Below, piece by piece: positions 6,868-57,181 of a DNA stretch of 64,000 bases. Position 1 is the first letter of the stretch, and every line of letters begins with the position of its first letter. Both the position numbers and the translations under genes were made by a program. The stretch covers positions 36,054 through 100,053 of the forward strand of contig WAMF01000001.1 in NCBI GenBank assembly GCA_015522475.1. Reading direction: 5' to 3'. The notes under the pieces are model-generated. The model had not been told where the DNA came from. It was given only the letters and a program-made list of their open reading frames with translations, and did no database searches. The stretch comes from Candidatus Micrarchaeota archaeon (GTDB taxonomy: Archaea; Micrarchaeota; Micrarchaeia; Anstonellales; J096).

Positions 6868-6965
6868 CCCGCCGTAGCTCAACGGTAGAGCGCCCGGCTG
6901 TAGTTTGTCGCCGCGAAGGCTAAGTGGTTACCGGGAGGTTGGCGGTTCAAATCCGCCCGGCGGGA
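6868..6965 (+). tRNA. tRNA-Tyr (anticodon GUA) with ~26-nt intron in the anticodon loop
   Basis: Acceptor CCCGCCG/CGGCGGG has the C1:G72 pair diagnostic of archaeal/eukaryal tRNA-Tyr, with A73. D-arm GCTC-AACGGTA-GAGC; anticodon stem CCCGG/CCGGG with loop CTGTAG^(intron TTTGTCGCCGCGAAGGCTAAGTGGTT)A; T-arm GGCGG-TTCAAAT-CCGCC. Confidence 0.75.
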
Positions 6966-7747: not shown

Positions 7748-10700
7748 TTAAAACGTTGGCGGATTTTCATTCCCAGGCTCTTCTGCTTCGCCAGCAACCC
7801 TTGTAACTCCTGCTTGTTCATTTCCCTCTTCTTCATTAACTCCCTTTTTCTCACTTTGCCTCCTACCTCTGCGCTTCACAACATACCGAATAACCACTAT
7901 AAGGGCTAGAACAACCAAAATAGCTCCGCCTATAACGTAGTTAGAAACGGCCTTCTCTAAACCCAAGTTAGCCACTTCTATGCCTACATTGTCTATGGAT
8001 TTATGTGAGACCACGACGACATGGTATTTGCCCTTAGGTAAGTTCCTTAACTCAAGTGTCTCGTTGCCACTGCCTTCCTTCTCCATAATGAGCTTATTGC
8101 CCAAGTAAACTTTGGCTGTATATGAGCCCTTGACTTTGGGCTTTACGTATATGATAGCTTGACTTTGGACATTGAAGTCCACTGTTTTTGTATGTACGGT
8201 TGGTTTTTCTTCTGGCCTTACTTTTACAAGCGTGGTTGTGGTTTGTTTGATGGGCATATTGCTTGTGTACATGTAGCTGCCAGCTGACGGAGGTATAAAT
8301 GTAGCTTCGCCATCTTCATTTGTTTTCAGAGACCACGTGCCTTTGTCAGATACGGCTTTTATGTTAATATTAGAGGCAGGTGAGCCATCCTGGTATGTTA
8401 TGTGTATAATTATTTTGTCGCCAACGTACGCTTGGGAAGGTGCGCTTATTACAAGGGACTTTTCCGTTGTGTTGACTGAGAGGCCACCACTGGATGAGCT
8501 GCCGCCTTGAGGTTGTGTTGTTGGAAGGATGATTTCAGCCATCTTTTGTGCGCTTATATTCTTGTAAGTGGCTTTTATAGTGTAGTTGCCGCTTTGGTTT
8601 ATGCTGAGTGTTATTGTGCCTTTGGAATCTGGGTGTCCTGAGTAACTTATATTTTCTCCGCTTATCCTCACAGTAACATCTGTTGGATTTATACTCTCAT
8701 TGTCTTTATAGAGTGTTGTGTATATAGATAGCAAGGCTTTCTCTGTGTTGTAATTCCAAGCTAGCTTTAAGTTGTACGTCGGCTGTGCTTTTTTGGGCTT
8801 TTCTGGAGCCGTGTATGTAAAGGTTGTTTCTGCTCTTTTGTATCCACTCTTTGTAGCCGATATTTTGTACTTAGCTGGGTAAGGCAAGGTGAATGTAACC
8901 TCTCCTTTGTCATCTGTTGTTGAGCTTTTTATGTAAAAAGGCGTGTCTGGAGGTGTATCCACTTGCCTAAGAACGACATGCGCATCCCATACATCTCTGC
9001 CATCAGAAGTTACATAGACTATTAACGATGAGTTTTTGAGTGTGTAATTGATGGACAAGGGTTTTTTGTGTTTTTTGGGTTTGGGTGGGGTTGGTGGTGA
9101 AGGTGGTTGGTTGAGAAGAGAACAGTTAAGCATCTCTATCGTGTTGTTTGTGCCAAGGTCTGTCATGTTGCCGTAGTTGTGCTCGCCTGTGTTGTTAGTT
9201 GTATTCTCATCCAAATAAAGACCAACAGTTGGAGCTCCACAAAGATTATTGTAGGAAATGTTGTTAAAGGTTGAATTGTGTATTGTGCCACCACTATTAC
9301 TTGTTCCCAGATATATAGAATCTCCTTTGGAGATAATAGTATTGTTTAGGATATTATAAAAAGAAATCCCTGTAAGATAAACTCCATGGCTAGCATTAGA
9401 TAGTGTATTTCCTTGAATTGTTCCACCACTACCCACATCAAAATAGATAGTAAAGGGGCCATCCCCTACAGATATGTTGTTACTTATCAGAGATGTATTA
9501 ACCGCATTGTATAGGTAAAGCGTGCTTAGGTCTGTATGGTTAGCTGTAATTGTGTTATTAAATATTGTACTGTTCTGAGAGAAAAGAAGAAACTCGGCAA
9601 AGCTTGGCCAACCCGTTACAAAACTGGGTGTTAAAATAGTTGAAGCTGTAATGTTATTGTTGGAAATATTTACATTATTGCCTCCAACCAAAATGCCAGA
9701 ACCGTTTACATAGGATATTATGTTAGAAGTTATTGAATAGTTATTACCTGGTTGGAAATTGGATATGTCATGCTCAAGAAGTAGAGCAAGACCATATGTA
9801 TAATTCAATGTGTTGTTAAATATGTTGACATTATCTACTGAAATATTCATACCGACGCCATAAGTGTATGTTAAAGTGTTTCCAAAAATGGATGCATTAG
9901 TAGACACAGAACCAAAAGAGATGCCTGTCCCATTGACGTAATTTAGGCGATTGTTAAAAATGTAAGTATTATTGCTCTCTAATGCAAGAATGGAATTAAC
10001 ACGGGTTAAAGATGTAGAATTAAGTGTATTATTAGCAATCACCGAATGATTGGAACTAACATAAATACCTCCATAATATAAGTTTCCAAAAAGGATAGTA
10101 TTGTTTGTTATAGTTAGGTTTGCAAATTCAAGAAGAATCCCCGCAACGCCAGAATAAGAAGACATGAGATTGTTTGAAATGGTGGGAGTATATATAAGGT
10201 TGTTCTTGACGCATGCAGAATTGTTTGCTCCAGCACCATAGCTATAAGTATAGACTCCATATAATAAATTAGTGGAGTTGATAACACATTCTTCCATTTG
10301 GAAAGAATGCCCTCCATAATATCCTTCTACACCTGTCCTAGTATTATTAAATGTGACATTGTTTACGATAATATTATTGACATAAGTCATGAAAATTCCG
10401 TCTGAAGATGTTTCATTTGATCCCTGAATGGTCACATTCTCAACAGATATATTATCATTTCCACAGAAAATAAGCTCTGCATATGTGCCATTTGTTAGGT
10501 GTACTTGTGAATCAGACGAGTAAAAAATGGGATTGCTATTATACCCTGTATTATTGTATATATTTACATCATAGCATCCATTCTTATCGGACGTTGAGGG
10601 AAGGCCAAACAAGATGTCAATTACATTATTATAAAAGCGATTTGATGATATGGTAAGGTTGGAAGTTTCAAGATGAAAGGAAATACCTTCAACATTACTA

Positions 10701-11137
10701 TGAAAAGTTGAATTGGCAATTGTAACATTATCTGAGTTAGAAGATGTCATTATACCTGTGCTATAACCAGAAATCCTACAATTTCTAATAGTAAGATTAC
10801 TATGATGTCCTAATGAGATAGCGGTTCCTGCATTTGGATCTCCATTTCCTAATAAAGTATTGATACTTAAATTAACTCCTTTACCAATAATGTGAGATTC
10901 GTTACAATCAAAAACAAGAGTGTCATTATCAATTTCAATTGCATCGTCACAACAATCTACTGGAATAGAATAATTGTCCTCGCACAACGTCACACTCTCG
11001 TGGATGTAATAAGTATTGCCTGTTTTTGTCACGGCCGTGCCCCACGTTGAGTTGTCGCTTAAATTGACGCAGGCCGAAAAAGCCATAGATAAGAATGCTA
11101 ATAACAGAAAGAAAGCAGCAAAGTACCTGGCTCGCAT
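7748..11137 (-). CDS. large cell-surface protein with right-handed parallel beta-helix repeats, Pro/Thr/Lys linker, Ig-like C-terminal region and C-terminal TM anchor
   Basis: 1129 aa with N-terminal signal peptide. Dozens of N-x-S/T sequons embedded in ~22-aa NxxI/V-containing repeats (NosD/pectin-lyase-like), then PPSPPTPPKPKKHKKP linker, beta-rich domains, a hydrophobic helix and a basic tail (KRRGRRQSEKK). Confidence 0.7.
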   Translation of the reverse strand: MRARYFAAFFLLLAFLSMAFSACVNLSDNSTWGTAVTKTGNTYYIHESVTLCEDNYSIPVDCCDDAIEIDNDTLVFDCNESHIIGKGVNLSINTLLGNGDPNAGTAISLGHHSNLTIRNCRISGYSTGIMTSSNSDNVTIANSTFHSNVEGISFHLETSNLTISSNRFYNNVIDILFGLPSTSDKNGCYDVNIYNNTGYNSNPIFYSSDSQVHLTNGTYAELIFCGNDNISVENVTIQGSNETSSDGIFMTYVNNIIVNNVTFNNTRTGVEGYYGGHSFQMEECVINSTNLLYGVYTYSYGAGANNSACVKNNLIYTPTISNNLMSSYSGVAGILLEFANLTITNNTILFGNLYYGGIYVSSNHSVIANNTLNSTSLTRVNSILALESNNTYIFNNRLNYVNGTGISFGSVSTNASIFGNTLTYTYGVGMNISVDNVNIFNNTLNYTYGLALLLEHDISNFQPGNNYSITSNIISYVNGSGILVGGNNVNISNNNITASTILTPSFVTGWPSFAEFLLFSQNSTIFNNTITANHTDLSTLYLYNAVNTSLISNNISVGDGPFTIYFDVGSGGTIQGNTLSNASHGVYLTGISFYNILNNTIISKGDSIYLGTSNSGGTIHNSTFNNISYNNLCGAPTVGLYLDENTTNNTGEHNYGNMTDLGTNNTIEMLNCSLLNQPPSPPTPPKPKKHKKPLSINYTLKNSSLIVYVTSDGRDVWDAHVVLRQVDTPPDTPFYIKSSTTDDKGEVTFTLPYPAKYKISATKSGYKRAETTFTYTAPEKPKKAQPTYNLKLAWNYNTEKALLSIYTTLYKDNESINPTDVTVRISGENISYSGHPDSKGTITLSINQSGNYTIKATYKNISAQKMAEIILPTTQPQGGSSSSGGLSVNTTEKSLVISAPSQAYVGDKIIIHITYQDGSPASNINIKAVSDKGTWSLKTNEDGEATFIPPSAGSYMYTSNMPIKQTTTTLVKVRPEEKPTVHTKTVDFNVQSQAIIYVKPKVKGSYTAKVYLGNKLIMEKEGSGNETLELRNLPKGKYHVVVVSHKSIDNVGIEVANLGLEKAVSNYVIGGAILVVLALIVVIRYVVKRRGRRQSEKKGVNEEEGNEQAGVTRVAGEAEEPGNENPPTF

Positions 11138-11842: not shown

Positions 11843-13411
11843 ATGGCAGATAAAGAGTACGTTCTCGACACCTCCGTAGTAGTTGACGGAAGGATACTGG
11901 AGTTAATAGAAGAAGGAGAGGTAAAAGGCACGCTCATATTGCCAAGGGCTGTCATAGCCGAGATGGAACATCAAGCAAATATGAATAAAGAACTGGGTTT
12001 CACAGGTTTTACAGTCATAGAAAAGCTAAGAGCACTAGAGAAAGCCAAAAAAATCCGCTTAGAGATAGATGGAGAGCGCCCGACGGAGCGGGAAATAGAG
12101 CTAGCTAAAAAAGCGGGCACTATCGACGCCAAGATAAGGGAGCTAGCCAGAATAAGAAATGCCATTTTAATAACAGGCGACAAAGTTCAGCACCTAGCAG
12201 CAGAAGCAGAAGGCATAGAAACGCTTTATTTACACGCAAAAGAAGAGGTTCACGGTCTAGGCTTCGAAAAGTACTTCGACGGATTAACAATGTCTGTTCA
12301 TATAAAGGAAAACCTACCCGTCGTCGTGAAGAGGGGTAAGCCAGGCAATTGGAAGATGATAACGCTAGATGAAGTTATAGACACAGACAAATTAAGGGCT
12401 CTATCAGAAGAGATAATAGAAGCAACACGCCGGAATGCCCAGTATTATGTAGAGTTAGACCAGCCCGGAGCAACAGTTATACAGATGGGTGATTACCGCA
12501 TCGTCATAACAAAGCCCCCCTTTTCAGACAACTTCGAGATAACAATCGTGAAACCCATAGTTAAGCTCAGCTTAAAAGACTACAAGTTGGATAAAAAGCT
12601 TCTGAAACGCCTAAATGAAGAGGCAGAGGGTATACTTATATGTGGCCCGCCTGGCAGCGGCAAGACAACATTCGCGACAGCTCTAGCAGAGTACTATTAC
12701 AAAAAAGGCTTCATAGTGAAAACGCTAGAAGACCCACGCGACATGCAAGTAGTAGACGCCATAACACAATACACGCGCCTCAATGGAAGCTACGAGAAGG
12801 CAAAGGACATTCTTCTCTTAGTGAGGCCCGACTACGTCTTCTTCGACGAAGTTAGAAAGACAGAAGAGTTCATCATATACAGTGACCTCCGCATGACTGG
12901 TATAGGTATGGTCGGCGTAGTCCACGCAAAGAAAGCCATCGACGCCATTCAGCGCTTCATAAACAAAATAGAGCTGGGCGTTATACCTCAAGTTATTGAC
13001 ACAGTTATCCTTATAGACAAGGGCAATGTTGGAAAAGTTTACAGTCTCGAACACACAATAAAGGTGCCGACGGGCATGACTGAAAAAGATTTGGCTAGGC
13101 CAGTCATAGAAGTAAGAGATTTCTTCAAAAACGAGCTGGAATTCGAGATTTACAAGTTCGGCGAAGAAACCGTCGTTCTACCCATAAAGGAAATCCAAAA
13201 TAAAGCTCAAGCCCAACGCAGCCTCAGAAATATTCAACACGTAATGAACAACCTTTTTGAGGAGGGCGAAGTAAGAGTAGAAAGCGAAGACGGAAGAATC
13301 ATAATATACGCGACGAAGCGAGCCATCCATGCCCTTAACCACAAGTACAGAAAACGCCTTGACAGGCTCGTGAAGCGCTACGGTGAGATAGAGGTGAGGC
13401 CCCTTGATTAA
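11843..13411 (+). CDS. PIN domain - PhoH-like P-loop ATPase - KH domain protein
   Basis: N-terminal PIN (LDTSVVVDGRI); Walker A ICGPPGSGKTTFA in the central domain; C-terminal KH-like region. Conserved archaeal architecture. Confidence 0.7.
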   Translation: MADKEYVLDTSVVVDGRILELIEEGEVKGTLILPRAVIAEMEHQANMNKELGFTGFTVIEKLRALEKAKKIRLEIDGERPTEREIELAKKAGTIDAKIRELARIRNAILITGDKVQHLAAEAEGIETLYLHAKEEVHGLGFEKYFDGLTMSVHIKENLPVVVKRGKPGNWKMITLDEVIDTDKLRALSEEIIEATRRNAQYYVELDQPGATVIQMGDYRIVITKPPFSDNFEITIVKPIVKLSLKDYKLDKKLLKRLNEEAEGILICGPPGSGKTTFATALAEYYYKKGFIVKTLEDPRDMQVVDAITQYTRLNGSYEKAKDILLLVRPDYVFFDEVRKTEEFIIYSDLRMTGIGMVGVVHAKKAIDAIQRFINKIELGVIPQVIDTVILIDKGNVGKVYSLEHTIKVPTGMTEKDLARPVIEVRDFFKNELEFEIYKFGEETVVLPIKEIQNKAQAQRSLRNIQHVMNNLFEEGEVRVESEDGRIIIYATKRAIHALNHKYRKRLDRLVKRYGEIEVRPLD

Positions 13412-14085: not shown

Positions 14086-15423
14086 TTAAAGTTTAAGCTC
14101 CGAATGCTCTAAGGAAGGCTTTAACTTCCATACAACGAACGCTGTAGAAATCATATTGAGCTGCGTCAAGTTAAAGAATATACGCAAATTTATAGGCAGG
14201 GATTTAGCCTTATAAGGAGAAAGAGTTGTTATGGGCTGCCTCTCTTTTATAGAGCGGATAATTTCTTGGATTGTAGGCCTTCGCCTTTCATAAACAACGC
14301 CATTCCAACCCTGCCCTAATAGAGAAGTGTGGGCTGAGGATGGCCAAGGATTGATGTGGCTATCGGGTTCAAAGAACACAACCTTTCCCCATGCTCTCCA
14401 TTCATCAGCAGCAAATATCTCAAGCTCTCCTTCGCGAGAAGGGCTCATAAGATTAACATCTTCGGCATTTAAGTTACCCTCTAGGGTTGACCCTTTCTTT
14501 GGAATAATTTTTTTCTTTGCTCTCTCTAGAAGGTGTTTTACAAAAGCCTCCATCCATAGGTTTGAAAAAGTAACTTTGGACTTAGCAGCGTCGGCATTAA
14601 ATATTGAAATAGCATCTGCCCTTTCAACAAGAGCTTCTATGAGGGCTCGGGCTCTAGGCATGTAGTGAAAAATGCCTGTTGCGTGAAACTTGCCAAATAT
14701 TCTCGTGCCATAAAAAGGATGTGGAATACCCACAGCTACATCTTTGTGATCTAGAAGCCAAAGAAGCATATCCTCTCCTCTTGTCCTGGGAGGTAGAGGA
14801 GGATACAACTTGTTAAATGGTGTTAGCTTAACCACGTCTGAACAAAATGTTTTTGCAAGCTCGGCATTAGGGAACCAATGAAGCACATGAAAGCCGTCAA
14901 TAACACTGCCTATGTTGTACGTGAATTCAGCCGCATAGCCCTTATCTATGTTAAAAGCTCTTAGGAATTTCCTCATAGCTTCTATTCTGACTATTTCCAT
15001 GTTGTTGTGAAAGCCGGAGAGATCAAAATCTATGTGGTGAAACGCTAGGTCTAAAACTACAAGTTCATAGGGGGATAAGCCATCGTCCACAAGGCGCTTT
15101 CCGGCAAAGGAACGCGTATGACCGTGAAGATGGACAAGGTAAAGAGAGCTCGGTTTAGTTAAAGCTGTTAATTCTACCTCGTCAAGTATATCACTAAGGC
15201 TATACTTAGGAAAGGCAAGATAAGTTGCAGGGCCATAGCCCACTGGGCTCATCTCGAGAAATAAAAAATTTGCTGCCCTTTCTTTAATTTTGGCCAGCAC
15301 AAAAAAATTAGACTGCCTAGCATTTCCTCTGTTGAATAGATAAAGATGGCCCTTCATTCGAATAGGCACTCTGTGAAAGCCCCGTTCCTTCATTCCTGCT
15401 ATGATCTCTTCCTTCAGAGACAT
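14086..15423 (-). CDS. hypothetical protein, possible metal-dependent hydrolase
   Basis: 445 aa with His-rich motifs (VHLHGHT...DDG; AFHHIDFD). Family not recognised. Confidence 0.35.
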   Translation of the reverse strand: MSLKEEIIAGMKERGFHRVPIRMKGHLYLFNRGNARQSNFFVLAKIKERAANFLFLEMSPVGYGPATYLAFPKYSLSDILDEVELTALTKPSSLYLVHLHGHTRSFAGKRLVDDGLSPYELVVLDLAFHHIDFDLSGFHNNMEIVRIEAMRKFLRAFNIDKGYAAEFTYNIGSVIDGFHVLHWFPNAELAKTFCSDVVKLTPFNKLYPPLPPRTRGEDMLLWLLDHKDVAVGIPHPFYGTRIFGKFHATGIFHYMPRARALIEALVERADAISIFNADAAKSKVTFSNLWMEAFVKHLLERAKKKIIPKKGSTLEGNLNAEDVNLMSPSREGELEIFAADEWRAWGKVVFFEPDSHINPWPSSAHTSLLGQGWNGVVYERRRPTIQEIIRSIKERQPITTLSPYKAKSLPINLRIFFNLTQLNMISTAFVVWKLKPSLEHSELKL

Positions 15424-20001: not shown

Positions 20002-21609
20002 GTGACCGAGCTCTACGAAAAGCTAAACCAAGCGTGGAAACAAACGTGTAAGATAGTGCTAGGCGATGAGGTAGGCGAGCTGAGCGAGTATAAGCCATGG
20101 TTGGAAGAAGTCTTCAAGGAGTATAGCTCTCCAGAGTACGGCCCTTGGAAAAAGGAAGTGAGCTCAGCCTTGACGGAGAAAGCCGTTTACGTTTTTGCCC
20201 CTTTCTATGAGAAGGGAGCTAAGTTCGCTGAGTATGATCTATTAAAGGAGAAAAAGATAGAGCCTTTATCGTTAGATGAGATAAAGGACATAGACTCTAT
20301 TTTAGAGGCATGGAAAGAGCGCTGGTGTTATAAGGCCAGTGTCGTCCTAGGCAAAAGCTATCATGTAGAAGAAAGCGATTCCGTGTTTAATTCAAGCTTT
20401 GTGTTGGGCTCCTATGCTGTAGCAGAGTCTAGCTACGTGGCTTATTCCATATGGGTAAGGAATGGTGGAAGATATATATTCGGTAGTGGAGGCGGGCCGG
20501 GTTTTAAGTTTGCCATACGTTCAGGATACGGCGCTGGCTTCAATCGCGGCATGGGCACATACTTTTTCGCTAACGTAAGCGACGTTTACTTTAGCCACTA
20601 CATCTTTGACAGCAGCGAGGTCATGTTCTCCTTTAATCAGATAGGTAAGCACTACATCATAGGCAATCTTCAGCTAACAAAGGATAAATACATGCAAACA
20701 AAAGCGGCTTTACTTGAGCAGATAAGGGCTGAGTTAAAAGCAAAGAAACGTTTTCCTTCTCTCATGGAGTTAGTGGCTGAAAATAAAGCTAAGCTTCTCC
20801 CTATCCCAGAAGAAGAGCTGAAGAAGATAAGTGTAGAGGAAGAGAAGTGCGATATGAAGCCCATAGAGGCGGGATTTGAGCGCACAACAAAGCTTTTGCT
20901 AGGAGAGAGCTTTACTTTAGATGAGCTGAAGGGCTATCTCATGGGGAAGCGAGCCGTTCCTCCTCAGCTCATAGAAACGCCCAGCGGAGCTAAGGCTGTG
21001 TACTACTCCGTTCTTTATCACACATCTTGGCCTAGTGACATAAACCTCAGGATCATTATTGACAAGGAAGCTAATGCGGCAGCAACTGTAACACTGGAAG
21101 AAAGCTCTATAAAAGAGCTCAGGAGTATTCGTCAAAGTATCGGGAGGATCGCCTACATATCCCAAAGCCTTTCATATAAGAGTATGAATATCTGCAGCGT
21201 TCCCATATCTTTCAACTCAAGGGATGTCGCATATATCTTTGACACTACAGAGAATAAAGTGGCAGCCTATAATTACGTGGGCAGCCCCTCTTCCAGCTAC
21301 ATCTTCGGTAGCTTTTTCACCACCAACTCTTCCTTTGTCATAAACAGCGACGTAAATGAGAACCTGCAGCGCGCTATAGAAGCAGACCGCTGCTCAAACA
21401 GTAGCGACATTTATTTCAGCCACGATATAGACGGCTCAACAGAAGTTATGTTCTCCCAGCACTTGAAAGGCGCGCGCTACACCATTGGCAACTTAGCCCT
21501 TGATAAGGAAAAATACCTCTCCATAAAAGCCTCCCTACTCAGCCAAGTCGTGAATGAATTAAAAAGCAAAGGCAAGCTGCACTTCGGCGTGAGGGAGCTA
21601 GGTGTATAG
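20002..21609 (+). CDS. repeat-module protein of unrecognised family (fused paralog)
   Basis: 535 aa; two tandem modules each consisting of S/V-rich beta-strand-like repeats capped by the helix KY..IKAALLEQI..ELKAKK; no match to families I recognise. Confidence 0.55.
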   Translation: MTELYEKLNQAWKQTCKIVLGDEVGELSEYKPWLEEVFKEYSSPEYGPWKKEVSSALTEKAVYVFAPFYEKGAKFAEYDLLKEKKIEPLSLDEIKDIDSILEAWKERWCYKASVVLGKSYHVEESDSVFNSSFVLGSYAVAESSYVAYSIWVRNGGRYIFGSGGGPGFKFAIRSGYGAGFNRGMGTYFFANVSDVYFSHYIFDSSEVMFSFNQIGKHYIIGNLQLTKDKYMQTKAALLEQIRAELKAKKRFPSLMELVAENKAKLLPIPEEELKKISVEEEKCDMKPIEAGFERTTKLLLGESFTLDELKGYLMGKRAVPPQLIETPSGAKAVYYSVLYHTSWPSDINLRIIIDKEANAAATVTLEESSIKELRSIRQSIGRIAYISQSLSYKSMNICSVPISFNSRDVAYIFDTTENKVAAYNYVGSPSSSYIFGSFFTTNSSFVINSDVNENLQRAIEADRCSNSSDIYFSHDIDGSTEVMFSQHLKGARYTIGNLALDKEKYLSIKASLLSQVVNELKSKGKLHFGVRELGV

Positions 21610-31964: not shown

Positions 31965-33227
31965 TTATAATGGTAACCATTCTATCTCATAGTAAAGCGT
32001 CGAGCTACTTTCTAAGATGATTCTACGAGCTATGTAGAAAGTTATGGCCGTTTCTCTATCTACAATAGCTAGCATGACATTCAATCCCTTGGCTAAAGCC
32101 CACTTAAACAAGCCATGAAGAAGCCTACCCGTTATTCCGTCTGACTGCCTAAGCACTTTAACAGCAAAACGCTCAATTTTGGGGTTGTGTTGTTGAACAA
32201 GCTGCTTGCTGAGCTTATCTTTGCTCTCTTGGCTGTTGCCTTTCCCTTTGCCCGCAATGCTTACAACAAAATCTGGTTTGACAGCTCTAGCCTCAAAGAG
32301 AGGAAGTGCTAATATGTATGTTTTTCTAACACTGTGACAAACCCGTATAGAACGACTCCAATCCTCTACGCGCGTCCGGAATGAGGCAGGAAAGACATGA
32401 AGTATGTGCTTCGAATGGATACGCTGGCCGGGCTTTGTTGATGCAGGATAGATTCTAAAATCACCACCAAACTTAAACCCGCTTTTGAGAACGAAGCCCG
32501 CATCCCGCCATTCTTTGTATACAGAGTAAAGTGCTTTCTCGTATGCAGAAAGTGCAAGTGCTGCTTCTTTTTTCTTCTTGCCTTTGTTCTTACCATGCTT
32601 GCCATCAAAGGATAAAATGCCTTTCTCAGCAAGGTACTGTGCCTCATACTTGTCAATAAAAAACATCCGACCCTTGTTCTGTTTATATATGCCTTTTTGG
32701 CCGAACCAATACTCTGTGTAAAGAGATGATGAACCATCTATCTGATAGAGAAAACCGTCAAAGCCTTGAATGTGTGCCTTCTCCTCTTTTAGTCCTCTCA
32801 CGTTCCATCGCGCTTTCTTGTATTCCTTCACGGGCTTAGCTTTTCCCTCAGCTTCATCCACGCTGCCAACAAACGTAAAGCCCCTTTCATGCAAGTAGCG
32901 CCATGTGATGTATTTAGCGTAGTCCACATGCGACGAGAGAAAAAGTTTTGACGCACTTTCATTTGCGAGCTCAACGCCAAGTATATCATAGAGATAAATA
33001 GCTGCATAAGGAGAAAGTTTTGCTCGCTGAGCTTTTCTCTTGGCTTTCTCTACAGACTCGTTGTTTCTGTCCTTGAGTTTAAGAGAGCTGGCAAGACCGC
33101 GTGCTATAAGCCTCGATACCTCCGCTTCCTCTCCTTCATAGAACCACTCCACTTTCTCCCTAGCTTTCGCGTTCTTTGCTGTTGCAGCTTTGCTCAGCTC
33201 ACCAACAATTTTACCCTTTAACCTCAT
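31965..33227 (-). CDS. endA: tRNA-splicing endonuclease, three-unit (epsilon-like) form
   Basis: Central unit matches the EndA catalytic domain (AGFVLKSGFKFGGDFRIYP...HSKHILHVFP...IRVCHSVRKTYILAL; compare M. jannaschii RGYIVKTGLKYGADFRLYE...HSVYLVKVFP...VRVAHSVRKKLLIAI). A second degenerate EndA-like unit lies at the C-terminus (NVMLAIVDRETAITFYIARRI), plus an N-terminal extra unit. 420 aa. Confidence 0.75.
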   Translation of the reverse strand: MRLKGKIVGELSKAATAKNAKAREKVEWFYEGEEAEVSRLIARGLASSLKLKDRNNESVEKAKRKAQRAKLSPYAAIYLYDILGVELANESASKLFLSSHVDYAKYITWRYLHERGFTFVGSVDEAEGKAKPVKEYKKARWNVRGLKEEKAHIQGFDGFLYQIDGSSSLYTEYWFGQKGIYKQNKGRMFFIDKYEAQYLAEKGILSFDGKHGKNKGKKKKEAALALSAYEKALYSVYKEWRDAGFVLKSGFKFGGDFRIYPASTKPGQRIHSKHILHVFPASFRTRVEDWSRSIRVCHSVRKTYILALPLFEARAVKPDFVVSIAGKGKGNSQESKDKLSKQLVQQHNPKIERFAVKVLRQSDGITGRLLHGLFKWALAKGLNVMLAIVDRETAITFYIARRIILESSSTLYYEIEWLPL

Positions 33228-33856
33228 GCAAGACCCTCTTTTCCTTCCTTCTGGCCATTGCCCATTTGGGCGCTCTTCTGGCCGAATACAAGATAGGCTG
33301 TATGGAAAAGCTGCATGTTCTTGGGGCGTGTGGCTCCCTCTTTAATCCTGTATTCTATGAGAGGCAAGGAAATGACAAACACGTGGTTAAAGAGAATGGT
33401 CATAGCCTCATAGAGGCGCTTAACCTGCTCTATGTTTGGTAAATAGGCTACGAAATAGCCCCCTGAGTTCAACCGCTCATAGGCGCGTTCGACGAGTTCC
33501 TCGGGCGCTGGAATATCCACGACGATTGCATCCAAGGAGTCTTCGTCGAAGTCCCGACCATCCCCATTCTTTATAACGACGTTGTCTAGTTTTGCCTTCT
33601 TTATGTTTGCCGAGAGAATTTTATAGGCATCTGCCCTAATTTCGTACGCATAAACCTCCTTAGCAACTCTTGCCAAATGATAAGTAAGAAAGCCGTTGCC
33701 TGCGCCTATTTCGACCACGCGCGACGTCTTGCCGATGTTTGCATAGGCAATGATAGCGCCTGCATCCTTTGGTAGAACAACAGCCATGCGTCGTTTGAAT
33801 GAGGCCAATGGCTTAGGCATGTGAAACACTTCTACAGCTTTCTTCTCACCTTTCAT
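33224..33856 (-). CDS. SAM-dependent methyltransferase, TrmI (tRNA m1A58)-like
   Basis: VVEIGAGNGFLTYHLA motif I, acidic motif II (YAYEIR), NVVIKNGD and VVDIP motifs; 210 aa. Confidence 0.5.
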   Translation of the reverse strand: MKGEKKAVEVFHMPKPLASFKRRMAVVLPKDAGAIIAYANIGKTSRVVEIGAGNGFLTYHLARVAKEVYAYEIRADAYKILSANIKKAKLDNVVIKNGDGRDFDEDSLDAIVVDIPAPEELVERAYERLNSGGYFVAYLPNIEQVKRLYEAMTILFNHVFVISLPLIEYRIKEGATRPKNMQLFHTAYLVFGQKSAQMGNGQKEGKEGLA

Positions 33857-33967: not shown

Positions 33968-36640
33968 CTATTTCCTCTCGCCGTACTCTTGCATAAAGCG
34001 GTGGTAAACCTCTAAAAGATCGGGCGTTATAGATGAGCGCCTCCCCGCTAGTATCTCGTCGATCTCTGCTTGGTTGAGCTTAACAGGCTTGCCCTCCATA
34101 GCCTTGTTCATAAGCTTGAGCTTCAGCTCTTCGCATATGCCCGTTATATCTGCCCCGCTGAATCCATCTGTCTTCTCAGCCAAATAGTCTAAATCAAAGA
34201 GAGAAGCGAACTTGCCCAAGTGTATTTTGAATATGGCTTTCCTAACATCTTCGTCGGGCGGTGGCACATATATGATTTTATCAAAACGGCCCGGCCTGAG
34301 TAAAGCGGGGTCTAAAAGTTGTGGTAAGTTCGTAGCGCCTATAACGACGACGTCTTTAAGGCTTTTAACGCCGTCCATTTCCTGCAGGAGCTGTCCCATA
34401 AGAGGATTGCTTGTGCCTTCTCTAGCGGGCGCTACTGTCTCGATCTCGTCTATAAATATGATGGCTGGTGAATTGTCCTTAGCTCTATTAAACGCTTTTT
34501 TCAATATCTCGGGAGCCCTTACGTAGCCCTCCTTCAAAAGGTCAGCGCCGCTCAAGAAGATCATGGGAATACCAAACTCGCCGGCTGCAGCTTTAGCCAC
34601 GTAAGTCTTACCCGTGCCCGGCGGCCCAAACAGCAAGACGCCGTTCGGCGGCTTTATATGGAACTTCTTCAAGAGCTCTTTATGCTTCATGGGCAGCTCT
34701 ATAGCCTCTTTCAGCGCTTTCTTCACGTCTTCCAAATCGGCTACATCTTTGAACGTAATGACTTGTTCCTCCTCTGGCTTTCTCTCCACCTTTATGGAGC
34801 GGCGCTCGAATTCCATTTTGAATTTCTCATAATCCTCAAGTTGTGACTCCGACGTCGAGGGCTTTGTATTCTTTATAACTTCTACAACATCCTCCATAGT
34901 CACAGGTTCGATCGTCCCTTTAAGCAGAGCATTTTCGGCGGCCTTTCTTTTGGCTTCTGTCACGACGTTGGCTATATCTGCTGGTGAGAAGCGCTCCGTC
35001 ATTTCAGCCAGCTTTTTATAGTCGATGTCTTTGGCTGTAGGCAGCTTTTTCAAGTAGTAGCGGAAGATAAGTTCTCTGCCTTTCTCGTCCGGTAGGCCCA
35101 TGTATATGATTTTATCAATACGGCCCGGCCTAAGAAGCGCCTTGTCTATGAGCTCAGGCACGTTTGTGGCAGCTACGAATATGATAGGCTTTTTACTCAC
35201 AACACCGTCAAGTTCTTGTAGAAGCGTATTCAAAACACGAGGCGTAATCTCATCTAAGCCCCCGCTTTGTCTTGTCTTGGCTATGGCATCAATCTCGTCG
35301 AAAAAGAGGATAATGGGGGCCTTTTTGCGGGCTAAATCAAAAATCTTTGACACGTTCTTTTCGCTTTCGCCGTAGTAGGGGCTCAAAAGGTCTGAGGTGC
35401 GTATATAGAGAAAGGGATAGCGGAGCTCCTTGGCTAAAGCCCTCATAAGATACGTCTTACCCGTGCCCGGCGGCCCGAAGAGGAGAATGCCTTTTGGCGG
35501 CTTAAGACCGTATTCGTAGGCTATCTCCGGCTTCTCTATGGGCGTCTTAATGGCCATGATAAGCTCCTTTTTTACGTCTTCATAGTCAGCAACATCTTCT
35601 AAGCCGCGCACATTGCTCTCGACAGATAAATCTTCAGCGCCAAAGATACCAAAGTCCTTAAGCTCGCGCTTGTGCCTCTCTTCCATCTCCCTACTGAAGC
35701 GAACGCCCTGCCGGTTCATAAGATAAAAAATGCCTATATCAACGAGTGTATAAACGGCCATCCCTATAGGAAAGGGCAGACCCATCATAGCATACATGCC
35801 ATAGTAAAAGAGCGGCACAGTAAGAAGGGCCAAAGATGCCTCAAGCTCGCCCCTAGCTCCTTTAACCATGCCTGTATAAAAAGCAGCGAAGTAGAGGAGA
35901 GCGGTCCAAAAGATAGCTTGTATAAGACCGCCGTCTTCGAGCAGATTGACAACTATGTTATTAACAACCATGCCAGCAACAGACGAGAATTCCATAAGGT
36001 TGTTTACGTCGAACATATTGTTCAAAGCTTGCGGGATAGCCCTGTTGAAAAAGCCAGCTAATGAAGGAACATCTGGTCTAAGGAGAGACTCATGAAACGT
36101 ATAAAGATCAAGGCGCAGAGGAAAATAAGCTGAATTGGGGACCTGCCACATCGTTGACAGTAAGAGCACAATAAGAACAGAAGGCACAGCTAGAGAAGCA
36201 CTTTTAAACGAGCCCAAATAAAGGGCTGAAATGAACATGACAAGATAGACTAAGCCTCCCAAATAATAAAAGACGGAGACGCCAAAAGGTAAAAATATAA
36301 TGATGTGAAGAAGGGCAATCTCGAGCCAATTATCCCAGACCTTAAACATGATTATAGAGAGTGCTAGCAAGTAAATGTAACCAAATACTGTGCTCTGATA
36401 CATAGCAGGCAATAAATTCATCCAAGCCAGAAGGAGAACACCAAATTCTGGCTTTTTTGCATAGGCAAGCCAAGCGGGCAAGAGAGCGGCGAAAGGCACG
36501 ACGACGAGAGGAAAAAAAGGCATAGCTGCAAAGGAGGCAAGCGCAGCTAGGTAAACGAAGAGTGCATGCATGAACTTCTCGTTAGAAGTGAGCACATAAG
36601 CATAGGCTTTAAGCTTAACAGAGTCAATATGCATACCCAT
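33968..36640 (-). CDS. polytopic membrane-anchored tandem AAA+ ATPase (CDC48-like D1-D2)
   Basis: N-terminal ~320 aa with ~8-9 hydrophobic helices; two complete AAA modules (LLFGPPGTGKTYL...FFDEID; VLLFGPPGTGKTYV...IFIDEIE) with second-region-of-homology arginines; no protease domain. Confidence 0.75.
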   Translation of the reverse strand: MGMHIDSVKLKAYAYVLTSNEKFMHALFVYLAALASFAAMPFFPLVVVPFAALLPAWLAYAKKPEFGVLLLAWMNLLPAMYQSTVFGYIYLLALSIIMFKVWDNWLEIALLHIIIFLPFGVSVFYYLGGLVYLVMFISALYLGSFKSASLAVPSVLIVLLLSTMWQVPNSAYFPLRLDLYTFHESLLRPDVPSLAGFFNRAIPQALNNMFDVNNLMEFSSVAGMVVNNIVVNLLEDGGLIQAIFWTALLYFAAFYTGMVKGARGELEASLALLTVPLFYYGMYAMMGLPFPIGMAVYTLVDIGIFYLMNRQGVRFSREMEERHKRELKDFGIFGAEDLSVESNVRGLEDVADYEDVKKELIMAIKTPIEKPEIAYEYGLKPPKGILLFGPPGTGKTYLMRALAKELRYPFLYIRTSDLLSPYYGESEKNVSKIFDLARKKAPIILFFDEIDAIAKTRQSGGLDEITPRVLNTLLQELDGVVSKKPIIFVAATNVPELIDKALLRPGRIDKIIYMGLPDEKGRELIFRYYLKKLPTAKDIDYKKLAEMTERFSPADIANVVTEAKRKAAENALLKGTIEPVTMEDVVEVIKNTKPSTSESQLEDYEKFKMEFERRSIKVERKPEEEQVITFKDVADLEDVKKALKEAIELPMKHKELLKKFHIKPPNGVLLFGPPGTGKTYVAKAAAGEFGIPMIFLSGADLLKEGYVRAPEILKKAFNRAKDNSPAIIFIDEIETVAPAREGTSNPLMGQLLQEMDGVKSLKDVVVIGATNLPQLLDPALLRPGRFDKIIYVPPPDEDVRKAIFKIHLGKFASLFDLDYLAEKTDGFSGADITGICEELKLKLMNKAMEGKPVKLNQAEIDEILAGRRSSITPDLLEVYHRFMQEYGERK

Positions 36641-36697
36641 TGCCCATGTGTTAACGGGAAAGCTTTAAAACTCTATAGCTGTAAAAGGCCTAAGCTT

Positions 36698-37999
36698 ATG
36701 AAGAGGCTACTTTTAAATTTGGACAAGATTGAAAAGGAGAGCAAAGCTAAGGCCGAACCGCCTTGGCTCATGAAAAAACGCCTGGAAGCAGCTGAGCGCT
36801 TCAACGAGGCAGAGCTAGACAATAAATTTTTTGCCCTTGGCATACATAAAGCGAGGCTGCAGGAAAAGGAAAAAAAGGCTGTAACTCCAGAAAAGCTGCC
36901 CAAAGATGTGGAAGAAACACTTAAAGCCTTAAACATAGGTGAGGAGGAGTGGAAAGTTTTAGCAGGCCTTAATACACAAGTAGACAACACTTCCATATAC
37001 AATCAGTTGAAGGCGGTCATAGAAGAGAAAGGTGTCATATTCACAAGCATGGAAGAAGCTGTAAGAAAGCACGAACACTTGATTAGGCCATATCTTTACC
37101 GTCTGACATTTGCTGAGACACCTTACGCAGCCCTAAACAGCGCGTTGTGGAAGGGGGGCATCTTTGTATACATACCAAAGGATCTGAAATTGCCGTACAC
37201 TCTTCAAGCCTTCTTCGTCATAAGCAGCGCTTACACTAGTCAAACAGAGCGCACGCTCATCATAGTTGACGAGGACGCGGCTGCCACATACATAGAGGGA
37301 TGTGCCGCCCCTGTATACAGAAACTTTGCCTTCCATCTACCAGCAAGCGAAGTGTTCATCAACAAAGGAGCAGAGCTCACATACATAACGCTGCAAAATT
37401 GGAGTAAAAACATACGCAACGTCGTCACAGGCAAAGCCCTAGTTAAAGACAATGCCACCATACATTGGATGGACGCCAACGTAGGTAGCGAGATAACAAA
37501 AAAAGCTCCTCTAACTATATTGAAAGGCGACGGGGCTAAGATGACCAGCTACTCCCTGGCCTTTGCGTCCAAAGAGCAGCGCATAAGCCTAGGCACACGC
37601 GTAGTGGTTAAAGGCAAAGAGGCGAGCGCCCACATAAAAAGTAAATCTATTTTAGACGGCGGCGTAGCCAATTTCGACACAGACATAACAGTAGAAAAAA
37701 ACGCCGCTCTCTCAACTGTGTTTAGCGAGTGTGACACGCACATATTAAGCGACGGCAGCTCAGAGAGCACGCCCAATATAGAAAACCTCTGCTCTTCTGC
37801 CCGTGTAAGCCACGAGGCAAGTGTAGGTCGATTCGACGAGGAAAAAGTTGCATATCTCCGCATGCGCGGTTTTGAAGAGGAAAGGGCAAAAGAACTCATG
37901 GTTATAGGCAGTGTCCAAGACTTCCTCAAAAAAATTCCCTTTGAGTATGCTGTGGAATTTAGGAAAATGTTGGAGTTAAAAGTGAAAGGCATAGGGTAG
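36698..37999 (+). CDS. sufB: Fe-S cluster assembly protein SufB/SufD family
   Basis: C-terminal beta-helix SufBD signature (ILKGDGAKMTSYSLAF...HEASVGRFDEEKVAYLRMRGFEEERAKELMV). Start moved to Met at 36698 to avoid overlap with the divergent AAA gene. Confidence 0.75.
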   Translation: MKRLLLNLDKIEKESKAKAEPPWLMKKRLEAAERFNEAELDNKFFALGIHKARLQEKEKKAVTPEKLPKDVEETLKALNIGEEEWKVLAGLNTQVDNTSIYNQLKAVIEEKGVIFTSMEEAVRKHEHLIRPYLYRLTFAETPYAALNSALWKGGIFVYIPKDLKLPYTLQAFFVISSAYTSQTERTLIIVDEDAAATYIEGCAAPVYRNFAFHLPASEVFINKGAELTYITLQNWSKNIRNVVTGKALVKDNATIHWMDANVGSEITKKAPLTILKGDGAKMTSYSLAFASKEQRISLGTRVVVKGKEASAHIKSKSILDGGVANFDTDITVEKNAALSTVFSECDTHILSDGSSESTPNIENLCSSARVSHEASVGRFDEEKVAYLRMRGFEEERAKELMVIGSVQDFLKKIPFEYAVEFRKMLELKVKGIG

Positions 38000-52775: not shown

Positions 52776-54503
52776 ATGATGCTTATCAACAAAAATAACG
52801 AAAAACGCCTCCTCCTGCTCTCTGCTCTTCTTTTTGCAACAATCCGCCTGTTTTTTCCTCTCTATTTTGTTACGCCGGACACATACACATATATGTGTTC
52901 GTCTTTGCACCTCGGAGATGAACACATCTCTCTGAAACACCGCTTTAACTTATATGTGTGGCTTAATCATACATTAGTAACTTTATTTGGCACAGGTGCT
53001 GGTAGAGGTGCGATCGTTAAAAAAGTTGCGCTGGCTTTCAAAGGGCTACAAATAAGCGTGGCCATATTTCTCGGGCTCGCATTTGTGTTTATGTATTATA
53101 TCATTAGAGAGCTGAATGTCAAACCCGGAACAGCTCTTATGCTAAGCTTTGCACTTATGATATTACCGCCCATGAACCTTACAACAAACCTTATTGAAGA
53201 AGCAATGGCACTGCCTTTGGCTATATGGTTTTTGCTGGCATTTTTGCGAAGGGAAAAAGCTTTTGTATTCATGCTTGGCCTCCTGCTTGTCATGACAAAA
53301 TTAACGACGCTGGGTTTGGTCTTGTCTGCTTATGCTCTCCTTGCATTAGAGGTTGTAAAAGGCAAACGCAGTTTGTTAGGCAGATGGTTGAAAGGAAAAT
53401 TCTTCGGCAGGGCACACTCAACTCCTAGCCTTTCTTATTGGGTCTTAACTGCTAGTTTGTTCCTACTTGGCTGTCTCGCCGCTGTAGCGGCTGTAAACCC
53501 TTTAAGGTTATTCCCGCTCATAACAAGCTTTCCACTAAAAGCCTGGGCTCTCCAAATTGTAGGTTTCCTTTTATACATAACGCTTCTCACCTCGGGCTTT
53601 AACATCCCAAATGTACGAGAGGTATTCAATGAAAGGATGTCTGCTGCCCACTTCTCATTGACTACAACCAGCGTGCAAAGAGATCGTCTCCTTGTTTTGG
53701 GCATAGGAGCGCTAGCTTTCATGCTGCCAGTATACTTAGTCCGCATCCCTTACCCTGAATTCATCACAGTAGGCATATACAGTCGTTATTTAGACCTAGC
53801 AGCTTTGCCCCTCTATGTCTTAGGCTACTCACGATTGCCGTCTAAGAAGAGTTTTGTTTTGTTCCTTATAGCAGGTTTTTTAGCTGGCATGGGCCTTATG
53901 AATTTTGACCCCTCTGCAGCCCCAGTTATTTTAGAAGTACTGCCTTTTAGCTCCTTTCTCCCTGCGGTTGTAGCGCTCTGGCTCCTCCTCAGCACATACA
54001 AGTTAAAGAGCAACGCACTACTCCGACTGACACAGGCCGCTATAGTTGCAGCTCTGCTCATCCCATTCAACCCGCTCATCGAAGTGCATCACACAAGCAT
54101 AGGTGTAGCCTCGTCTAAAGACTTGGCTTACGCATGCCACCTGCTTGGTTATAATGTTTCTGCAGCTTCTCTGACTACAATCCACCCCTCCCTCAATACG
54201 CTCGCCCAAAGCAATACAGCACTAGGCAAAACGGGTATTATGGCCGCGGATAATCTGCGCGTTGTAGAAACAAAGCGTCTCGTGCCCATCAATGCGACAG
54301 TCGTGAACATCTGCTTGTTTAGAAAGCTATGGATAAAGGTCGATAACAAAAAGATATGGCTAGAGCCGCGTGAAAAGCTTCCTTTGAAGAATGTAAAGCC
54401 CATCAATGTTACGTTTGAGCTCATCCCACCAATAACGTGCAATCCTCTTGTGCCATATGTGGGGAGAGTGGGTGCGGCAGTCGTGGCAAATAACGGCAAC
54501 TAA
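52776..54503 (+). CDS. polytopic membrane protein, possibly GT-C-fold glycosyltransferase-like
   Basis: 575 aa with ~11-13 TM helices and a C-terminal soluble domain; family not assignable by eye. Confidence 0.35.
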   Translation: MMLINKNNEKRLLLLSALLFATIRLFFPLYFVTPDTYTYMCSSLHLGDEHISLKHRFNLYVWLNHTLVTLFGTGAGRGAIVKKVALAFKGLQISVAIFLGLAFVFMYYIIRELNVKPGTALMLSFALMILPPMNLTTNLIEEAMALPLAIWFLLAFLRREKAFVFMLGLLLVMTKLTTLGLVLSAYALLALEVVKGKRSLLGRWLKGKFFGRAHSTPSLSYWVLTASLFLLGCLAAVAAVNPLRLFPLITSFPLKAWALQIVGFLLYITLLTSGFNIPNVREVFNERMSAAHFSLTTTSVQRDRLLVLGIGALAFMLPVYLVRIPYPEFITVGIYSRYLDLAALPLYVLGYSRLPSKKSFVLFLIAGFLAGMGLMNFDPSAAPVILEVLPFSSFLPAVVALWLLLSTYKLKSNALLRLTQAAIVAALLIPFNPLIEVHHTSIGVASSKDLAYACHLLGYNVSAASLTTIHPSLNTLAQSNTALGKTGIMAADNLRVVETKRLVPINATVVNICLFRKLWIKVDNKKIWLEPREKLPLKNVKPINVTFELIPPITCNPLVPYVGRVGAAVVANNGN

Positions 54504-57082: not shown

Positions 57083-57169
57083 AGCAGGGGTCGCCAAGCC
57101 TGGTCAACGGCGTCAGGTTCAGGGCCTGATCCCTTAGTGGGTTCGTGGGTTCGAATCCCACCCCCTGCA
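57083..57169 (+). tRNA. tRNA-Leu (anticodon CAG)
   Basis: Acceptor GCAGGGG/CCCCTGC+A73, anticodon stem TCAGG/CCTGA with loop TTCAGGG, long variable arm, T-arm GTGGG-TTCGAAT-CCCAC. Confidence 0.85.
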
Positions 57170-57181
57170 CTTCTCTTTTTT
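57170..57181 (+). terminator. oligo-T tract after tRNA-Leu
   Basis: cttctcttttttt directly 3' of the tRNA; archaeal terminators are T-rich. Confidence 0.4.

Follow-up and report, generated by a model that had tools for sequence, protein, structure and literature searches.

A Micrarchaeota family of membrane-integrated tandem AAA ATPases, candidate protein unfoldases or dislocases with an apparently novel membrane domain

The window considered here, that is the whole stretch of DNA analysed, comprises 64,000 nucleotides (nt) from a Candidatus Micrarchaeota archaeon (assembly GCA_015522475.1, contig WAMF01000001.1, positions 36,054-100,053, forward strand). It carries a gene, hereafter the AAA gene, whose product of 890 amino acids (aa) consists, in this order, of a polytopic membrane domain of about 310 aa, a conserved linker and two complete AAA modules of the classic clade. 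A sequence-only reading of the window had described the open reading frame (ORF) 33968-36640 as a tandem AAA ATPase fused to membrane helices, and an ORF of 890 aa with this architecture is indeed found at exactly these coordinates, on the minus strand. The family to which it belongs is real and undescribed, and adds an apparently novel membrane domain to the membrane-anchored type of AAA unfoldase. The gene and the parts of its protein are listed below, with positions in the window.

33968..36640, minus strand: whole AAA gene, 890 aa and stop codon (ORF list; ATG start; identical to the public protein P0001)
35705..36640, minus strand: N-terminal polytopic membrane domain, aa 1-312 (hydropathy, AlphaFold 2 model, Lys+Arg in loops, invariant residues)
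35606..35704, minus strand: conserved linker, predicted to be cytoplasmic, aa 313-345 (conservation; helix 318-333 in the AlphaFold 2 model)
34796..35605, minus strand: AAA module 1, membrane-proximal, aa 346-615, with large ATPase domain, lid and Vps4_C-like C-terminal helix (Pfam AAA, AAA_lid_3, Vps4_C)
35453..35476, minus strand: Walker A of module 1, GPPGTGKT, aa 389-396 (invariant in the family)
35360..35383, minus strand: pore loop 1 of module 1, S-P-Y-Y-G-E-S-E, aa 420-427 (family consensus S-[QK]-W-Y-G-E-S-E)
35294..35311, minus strand: Walker B of module 1, ILFFDE, aa 444-449 (D448 and E449 invariant, 111/111)
35120..35131, minus strand: arginine-finger motif of module 1, R-P-G-R, aa 504-507 (R504, P505, G506 and R507 invariant)
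34757..34795, minus strand: flexible inter-module linker, aa 616-628 (full-length model: confidence under 50 at aa 616-625)
33971..34756, minus strand: AAA module 2, membrane-distal, aa 629-890 (Pfam; ends in Y-G-E-R-K)
34604..34627, minus strand: Walker A of module 2, GPPGTGKT, aa 672-679 (invariant in the family)
34511..34534, minus strand: non-canonical pore loop 1 of module 2, K-E-G-Y-V-R-A-P, aa 703-710 (column counts)
34445..34462, minus strand: Walker B of module 2, IIFIDE, aa 727-732 (D731 and E732 invariant, 111/111)
34286..34297, minus strand: arginine-finger motif of module 2, R-P-G-R, aa 782-785 (invariant residues)

The Pfam scan of the 890-aa protein gave two matches to PF00004 (AAA), the best stretch covering aa 385-515, together with two matches to AAA_lid_3 and a Vps4_C-like helix after module 1. 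With a total of 262.5 bits over two stretches for a gathering cut-off of 21.2, PF00004 places the protein in the classic clade of AAA ATPases. The same scan found neither a protease domain nor a CDC48_N domain. In each module, the 70-111 homologs aligned keep Walker A and B, the sensor-1 Asn and the RPGR arginine fingers without variation, and these motifs show both modules as catalytically intact. Pfam and motif positions thus agree with the sequence-only reading in what it said of two complete modules with Walker A/B and arginine fingers and no protease domain.

The two modules differ in their pore loops. In module 1, the columns concerned contain W in 101/111, Y in 86/111 and G in 110/111 homologs, the protein of the window having Y-Y. 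In module 2, the family pattern is [KQ]-[KR]-G-[YF]-x-x-A-V, lacking G-E-S-E, with G in 110/111 and Y/F in 94/111. Judged from the alignment, the canonical double-aromatic pore loop is present only in module 1, while that of module 2 is conserved but degenerate. Such a double-aromatic loop is also found in Msp1/ATAD1 (W187, Y188) and in the D2 module of Cdc48, and was proposed to help the grip during extraction from membranes (PMC7018516).

The sequence-only reading had called the tandem "CDC48-like D1-D2", which does not hold. The best match of each module is the D2 part (positions 449-731) of the CDC48 model TIGR01243, with 242.7 bits for module 1 and 240.8 bits for module 2, the next-best ones being PAN, FtsH and CdvC. 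In the same way, module 1 scores 218.6 bits against D2 of p97 and 150.2 bits against D1, and module 2 190.1 and 168.6 bits, respectively. Modules 1 and 2 share 41% identity, and each is closed by the same C-terminal helix motif, KPSTS..Y..F..ERR in module 1 and RRSSIT..Y..F..YGER in module 2. The D2-best scores, this mutual identity and the common end motif indicate a tandem of D2-type modules and not a D1-D2 pair as in Cdc48.

The divergent homolog P0142 (822 aa, from a Micrarchaeota contig of 93.7 kb) has an intact membrane domain and an intact module 1, but its module 2 has lost Walker B, the sensor-1 Asn and the arginine fingers. This decay of module 2 in one lineage points to module 1 as the probable core motor. 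Furthermore, inteins occur in at least eight homolog clusters (P0087, P0093, P0111, P0115, P0117, P0119, P0122 and P0126), most of them with matches to PF14890/PF14528. Their insertion point in the module-1 pore loop separates G-E-S from E-K-N and follows residue 426 of the window protein; P0126 (1912 aa) holds a second intein immediately ahead of Walker B. Insertion at the most conserved site suggests that the host gene is important.

The first 310 aa or so are strongly hydrophobic, the 19-residue Kyte-Doolittle windows reaching 2.2. The AlphaFold 2 model of aa 1-345, built with 70 homologs, is all-helical and confident (mean predicted local distance difference test, pLDDT, 93.4; predicted template modelling score, pTM, 0.90). 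Twelve helices are seen in the membrane domain: 5-19, 21-39, 48-61, 64-82, 84-119, 122-142, 144-165, 194-209, 212-235, 238-258, 262-286 and 292-310. Lys and Arg residues, counted per protein and averaged over 111 full-length homologs, alternate along the loops: 3.8 at the N-terminus, 1.1 in loop aa 61-64, 1.7 in loop aa 142-148, 2.8 in loop aa 258-263 and 5.3 in loop aa 310-330, with essentially none in the loops aa 40-47, 82-84 and 118-122. This alternation fits about ten crossings and a cytoplasmic position of both the N-terminus and the AAA modules, as an ATPase requires. The membrane domain would therefore comprise about ten crossings and two helices that are not membrane-like, both its N- and C-terminus being predicted to be cytoplasmic. 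The stretch aa 166-237, less hydrophobic and more variable, fits a location outside the cell under this model of about ten crossings.

Embedding of the N-terminal region in the membrane, on which the sequence-only reading had staked itself beforehand, is upheld by hydropathy, by the AlphaFold 2 helices and by the family-wide Lys+Arg bias, with aa 84-119 ambiguous. The same evidence, together with the lack of CDC48_N, supports its claim that a polytopic membrane domain replaces the N-terminal substrate domain. Its count of "~9" helices has to be revised to twelve helices and about ten crossings, the polytopic nature of the domain being retained.

Nine residues are invariant in the family, namely P44, Q82, S83, W105, P118, F119, D236 and Q241 in the membrane domain and E318 in the linker. 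Near-invariant positions of the membrane domain include G143, S144, S147, S162, N169, N228 and W245, and acidic residues are frequent around aa 100-103 and at position 112, within hydrophobic helices. Such conservation, as read from the alignment, is above what a mere anchor would be expected to need. The linker consists of an Arg/Lys-rich helix (aa 318-333) which bears the invariant E318, followed by K328 and a F-G-x-F-G motif at aa 330-334.

No meaningful match to the membrane domain was obtained from Pfam or NCBIfam models at E<=10, using the N-domains of diverse members. Likewise, Foldseek comparison of the N-domain model with PDB and BFVD gave no relative (best E of about 1.5, TM-scores of 0.2 or less). 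The domain may thus represent a membrane fold not seen before, including a conserved polar site, a provisional view as Foldseek is weak on all-helical membrane proteins. No internal repeat was found by hhalign on sub-alignments. A protease-like catalytic site was also considered for this domain and rejected, as neither His nor Cys is conserved in it and known intramembrane-protease motifs are missing. It does contain a G-S-x-K-S motif (aa 143-147), which is suggestive only, and no claim of a protease rests on it.

The full-length monomer model (AlphaFold) has a pLDDT of 84.7 and a pTM of 0.59. Its weak parts are the linkers, aa 330-345 (pLDDT 61-71) and aa 616-625.

A full-length search recovered the identical protein P0001, encoded on a 221-kb contig, and more than 100 clusters of 880-920 aa sharing 45-66% identity over 99-100% of the length. 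Those that carry a name are called "AAA family ATPase" and are labelled Candidatus Micrarchaeota, Micrarchaeia, Anstonellales or Bilamarchaeaceae, with few other labels ("ainarchaeum sp.", "Methanobacteriota archaeon", "bacterium"). An exhaustive phmmer search with the N-domain alone against 1.84 billion representatives returned 27 clusters, nearly all of them AAA-tandem fusions and the rest mostly fragments; every named match is from Micrarchaeota, including the most divergent ones. A single family-specific peptide pattern, spanning the linker and the start of module 1, was confirmed at 94 loci or more over 185,579 species genomes, and the 80 loci retained are all titled Micrarchaeota-type or plain "archaeon". 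This pattern occurs in 58/120 family proteins, so that 94 is a lower bound and the true number would be roughly double. From these searches, the tandem AAA with its membrane domain appears conserved across the Micrarchaeota sampled and found only in that phylum.

The AAA gene is probably single-copy. Two copies in one genome bin, considered as possible paralogs, are 94% identical and were attributed to strain variants. Stand-alone membrane domains, which would have pointed to a split architecture, were discarded in the same way: the record of P0144 is labelled partial, and P0139 breaks off within the last membrane helix. Literature searches gave no paper on this AAA family. Hence the view that this is not a well-characterised family, already expressed in the sequence-only reading, is maintained: its members are named only "AAA family ATPase" and their N-domain has no Pfam or NCBIfam model.

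The C-terminus varies among members. Most of them end in Y-G-E-R-[KRH], and the protein of the window ends in EYGERK, without a tail. An acidic or Pro-rich tail of 13-30 aa extends 6 of the 75 full-length species-level proteins and about 8 of the 120 clusters, ending in GMYR, EMYR, HYR, GMYG or PMFG. These HbYX-like tails are those of proteins P0019, P0039, P0052, P0111, P0051, P0083, P0117 and P0069, and of loci L012, L023, L025, L029, L043 and L046. Proteins with GMYR ends group in a small clade (72-76% identity) whose linker has diverged but whose end has been kept; the remaining tails have a scattered occurrence. The HbYX motif (a hydrophobic or small residue, Tyr or Phe, then any residue) docks PAN, Cdc48 and AMA on the 20S proteasome (PMC3493965). 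The tails of this minority fit the motif, which suggests a link of the family to degradation by way of a putative proteasome binding. One Micrarchaeota contig codes for a proteasome beta subunit (G|TTTVG; Pfam Proteasome, 189 bits). The gene for this subunit (L066, 14964-15626, minus strand) lies 4.3 kb from the AAA gene, a probably coincidental proximity unseen at other loci.

In the window, the AAA gene is flanked on one side by genes for a GCD14/Trm61-like methyltransferase, a 420-aa tRNA-splicing endonuclease and a MFS transporter, and on the other side by a divergent sufB and a TBP gene. The sufB ORF starts at 36566 as called mechanically, within the 5' end of the AAA gene and on the other strand. 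Its alignment to the SufB model begins no earlier than residue 50, and the ATG at 36698 (MKRLLLNLD) is a likelier start. The likely starts of the two genes are then separated by about 57 nt, and this gap contains one further feature.

36663..36670, minus strand: TATA-like element TTTTAAAG, putative promoter (read directly from the sequence; centre about 26 nt upstream of the ATG at 36640)

This element would fit a leaderless or short-leader archaeal transcript of the AAA gene. As a single AT-rich element located about 26-30 nt from both divergent start codons, it might serve sufB as well.

The pairing with sufB, put forward in the sequence-only reading, is thus real in the window. It is not meaningful as a functional link, since it is absent from 80/80 other loci, and was set aside as incidental. 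More generally, when flanking ORFs were clustered, none of the immediate neighbours seen in the window recurred beside the AAA gene in the 80 other loci. For instance, FtsZ, Spt5 and a 2-thiouracil-desulfurase-like gene are found near it instead on a 1-Mb Micrarchaeia contig. Its wide presence, the strain-variant nature of the one apparent second copy, the inteins and the housekeeping neighbours together give the AAA gene an apparent housekeeping character.

Other genes of the window deserve mention. The tRNA-splicing endonuclease (31965-33227, minus strand, 420 aa) is much longer than usual archaeal subunits; its catalytic domain lies at aa 234-308, and a weak match to an endonuclease N-domain was also obtained; an unusual three-unit endonuclease has reportedly been described in ARMAN-type Micrarchaeota. 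Its gene overlaps by 4 nt that of the GCD14/Trm61-like methyltransferase (33224-33856, minus strand), which suggests a small tRNA-processing operon. Two tRNA calls depend on the tool: a 98-nt tRNA at 6868-6965 (plus strand), possibly intron-containing, was called by Rfam and unreported by ARAGORN, and tRNA-Leu(CAG) at 57084-57170 (plus strand) was called by ARAGORN and is outside the Rfam gathering list. A candidate for a surface or S-layer-type protein is encoded at 7748-11137 (minus strand; 1129 aa, with right-handed beta-helix, NosD-like and CarboxypepD_reg domains); near the AAA gene, about 15/80 other loci also encode S-layer-like proteins, of about 915 aa. A 522-aa protein (11843-13411, plus strand) combines an N-terminal PIN domain with the core of a type II/IV secretion (PilT-like) ATPase. 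Three ORFs of 535, 575 and 445 aa (20002-21609, plus strand; 52776-54503, plus strand; 14086-15423, minus strand) have no Pfam match at E<=1e-5.

Cdc48, p97 and VAT are the known systems closest to the protein of the window. They share with it two tandem classic-clade AAA modules, arginine fingers in the second region of homology, lids and a double-aromatic pore loop, and, by inference, threading from module 1 to module 2. They are also its best matches both in sequence (p97, E=2.5e-114; VAT, 2.5e-104) and, for Cdc48/p97, in the fold of the AAA tandem model (about 570 aligned columns, 34% identity). However, it scores only 474.4 bits against the CDC48 family model (NCBIfam TIGR01243), whose cut-off is 802.65. 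Instead of the CDC48_N double-psi barrel and CDC48_2, which make up the double-psi-barrel/beta-clam N-domain of Cdc48/VAT, it has 312 all-helical hydrophobic residues forming the membrane domain. Its modules are not a distinct D1 and D2, both being D2-like; unlike in Cdc48, module 1 carries the canonical pore loop and module 2 a degenerate one, and the C-terminal HbYX motif is missing in most members, including the window protein.

The resemblance to FtsH lies in the order of the parts, an N-terminal membrane anchor followed by classic-clade AAA, with a ring expected to face the membrane and a likely role in removal of membrane proteins. FtsH itself has two transmembrane helices, a periplasmic domain, one AAA module and a C-terminal M41 zinc protease, whereas the window protein has about ten crossings, two AAA modules and no protease. 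It scores 420.3 bits, over the AAA region only, against the FtsH model (TIGR01241, cut-off 600), without any match to Peptidase_M41. To our knowledge, FtsH is generally absent from archaea. The protein is not a PAN either, with 429.5 bits for a cut-off of 500 and with neither an OB domain nor HbYX in the window protein.

Msp1/ATAD1 has in common with this protein an N-terminal anchor, a linker and an AAA module with a W-Y pore loop, and, itself devoid of a protease, extracts proteins from the membrane (PMC7018516). It is eukaryotic, spans the membrane with one helix and has only one AAA module, of the meiotic clade; the comparison showed no specific relationship in sequence, and beyond this general layout only the W-Y-G type of pore loop is common to both.

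Within archaea, the MBA ("membrane-bound AAA") proteins of Sulfolobus (Serek-Heuberger et al. 2009, cited in PMC3493965) are presented in PMC3493965 as a group apart from Cdc48, PAN, AMA and Vps4. Compared by that description only, they provide a precedent for membrane-bound AAA proteins in archaea. Their membrane domains are not detectably related to the present one, as the named clusters among the 27 recovered with the N-domain are all from Micrarchaeota.

Archaeal membrane-bound LonB is another membrane-anchored AAA+ machine, thought to handle quality control of membrane proteins. It has a single AAA+ module of the HCLR clade, inserted transmembrane helices and a Ser-Lys protease, none of which is found in the window protein. 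Taken together, these comparisons suggest that the latter would work like FtsH or Msp1 while being built from Cdc48-type modules and belonging to none of these families.

It is therefore proposed, by analogy with these systems and with confidence about evenly balanced between belief and doubt, that the product of the AAA gene could be a protein unfoldase or dislocase, specific to Micrarchaeota, integrated in the membrane and driven by ATP. Six subunits would form a stacked double ring, the face of module 1 lying against the cytoplasmic side of the membrane with six membrane domains around it. Module 1 would grip a terminus or loop, exposed to the cytoplasm, of a membrane protein or membrane-associated protein, and the substrate would be threaded from module 1 to module 2, as in Cdc48/VAT, and pulled from the bilayer into the cytoplasm. 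Module 2 could add force or stabilise the hexamer. Bearing invariant polar residues, the membrane domain would probably recruit substrates or provide a lateral exit path, beyond its anchoring role. Since no protease forms part of the protein, extracted chains would be degraded elsewhere, or complexes would merely be disassembled. In the minority lineages with HbYX-like tails, the ring would probably dock on the 20S proteasome, giving a membrane-tethered degradation machine functionally similar to FtsH.

The polarity of this scheme follows from the architecture. Classic-clade AAA motors thread from their N-terminal to their C-terminal face, and in Cdc48/VAT and FtsH the N-terminal side is that of substrate entry. 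Here the membrane domain is N-terminal to module 1, on the entry side, so that substrates would be expected to move toward the cytoplasm. Extraction or unfolding, already suggested in the sequence-only reading, stays the most likely explanation and finds some support in the W-Y-G pore loop of module 1, which is of the Msp1/Cdc48-D2 type, and in the HbYX-like tails of the minority.

Several points weigh against this unfoldase or dislocase proposal. Its substrates, oligomeric state and threading are drawn by analogy. The double-aromatic pore loop was probably inherited from a Cdc48-D2-like ancestor, and is consistent with extraction without being an independent support for it. The window protein and most homologs lack the HbYX motif. 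The geometry between the membrane domain and the ring is not reliably given by the full-length monomer model, given its low pTM, and aa 84-119 form one continuous helix in the AlphaFold 2 model while loop charges favour a hairpin. No conserved neighbour was found that would tie the gene to a pathway as an operon partner, the commonest, an aminotransferase-like gene, being present in 14/73 loci. Finally, the invariant polar residues of the membrane domain would also fit a role in transport or in an enzymatic reaction.

This last point leads to a different explanation, rather unlikely in our judgement, in which the membrane domain would be a transporter, a channel or an enzyme powered by the AAA tandem, without any extraction of membrane proteins. 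Its tasks, which are put forward with the same reserve, could be protein export or insertion, assembly of surface structures, or movement of lipids or glycans, perhaps in the contact between Micrarchaeota symbionts and their hosts. The conservation beyond the needs of an anchor argues for it, with nine invariant residues including the polar Q82, S83, D236 and Q241, with S144, S147, S162, N169 and N228 near-invariant or common, and with acidic residues within hydrophobic helices. So do the confident and apparently unique membrane fold, the fact that the domain is never found without the motor, fragments aside, and the S-layer-like proteins near about 15/80 loci. However, the polarity of the motor predicts movement toward the cytoplasm, the HbYX-like tails of some members point to the proteasome, and neither Pfam, NCBIfam nor Foldseek reveals similarity to any transporter or enzyme family; the internal repeat common in transporters was not found, nor was a conserved neighbour (14/73 loci at best). 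It is similarly doubtful that the protein would simply be the Micrarchaeota version of the general Cdc48/VAT, tethered to the membrane and acting mainly on soluble substrates, its membrane domain serving only for localisation or hexamer stability. Cdc48/p97/VAT are indeed its closest relatives in sequence and fold. Cdc48 was reported as the only AAA group present in all archaea surveyed (PMC3493965), so that a phylum-wide Cdc48-like gene could replace it, and neither the window nor some 1.1 Mb of flanking DNA from Micrarchaeota, a small and biased sample, showed another classic AAA gene. On the other hand, ten conserved helices, invariant polar residues and a conserved linker exceed what tethering needs, and the score remains far under the CDC48 cut-off (474 versus 802.65 bits), with no CDC48_N or CDC48_2 domain.

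Two other explanations carry far less weight. Matches to IetA/IteA of 262 bits (PADLOC) and 239 bits (NCBIfam) could evoke a protein of anti-virus defence or of a mobile element, in the style of the IetA AAA ATPase, which is very unlikely. These matches are confined to the generic AAA core, the NCBIfam one (238.6 bits) being under its cut-off of 510; no partner protease adjoins the gene, whose neighbours are sufB and a tRNA methyltransferase, and the gene is phylum-wide with housekeeping neighbours. Identity with this defence system was consequently rejected. An assembly or gene-calling artefact, fusing a membrane-protein gene to an AAA gene, could have been evoked by the short matches to the N-domain alone, but it is refuted for practical purposes by the same continuous ORF at 80 independent loci and in more than 100 protein clusters with 99-100% coverage.

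A bolder extension of the unfoldase or dislocase proposal, to be taken as speculative and rather improbable, is that of a self-contained retrotranslocon. The six membrane domains would act as a recognition and lateral-exit device fused to its own Cdc48-type motor. This device would do the job of Hrd1/Derlin in endoplasmic-reticulum-associated degradation (ERAD) or of the membrane region of FtsH, and some lineages would dock on the 20S proteasome by their HbYX-like tails. If true, this would be an archaeal single-gene equivalent of the extraction-degradation pathway of ERAD, replacing FtsH/LonB in a reduced DPANN genome.

As regards AAA+ biology, this family would represent an unusual type II machine: its first ring would bear the canonical pore loop, and a polytopic membrane domain would stand where an N-domain is normally found. 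It is also a lineage marker for Micrarchaeota. The removal of damaged or surplus membrane proteins is poorly understood in archaea, especially in the genome-reduced DPANN symbionts, and this family provides a testable candidate for that function.

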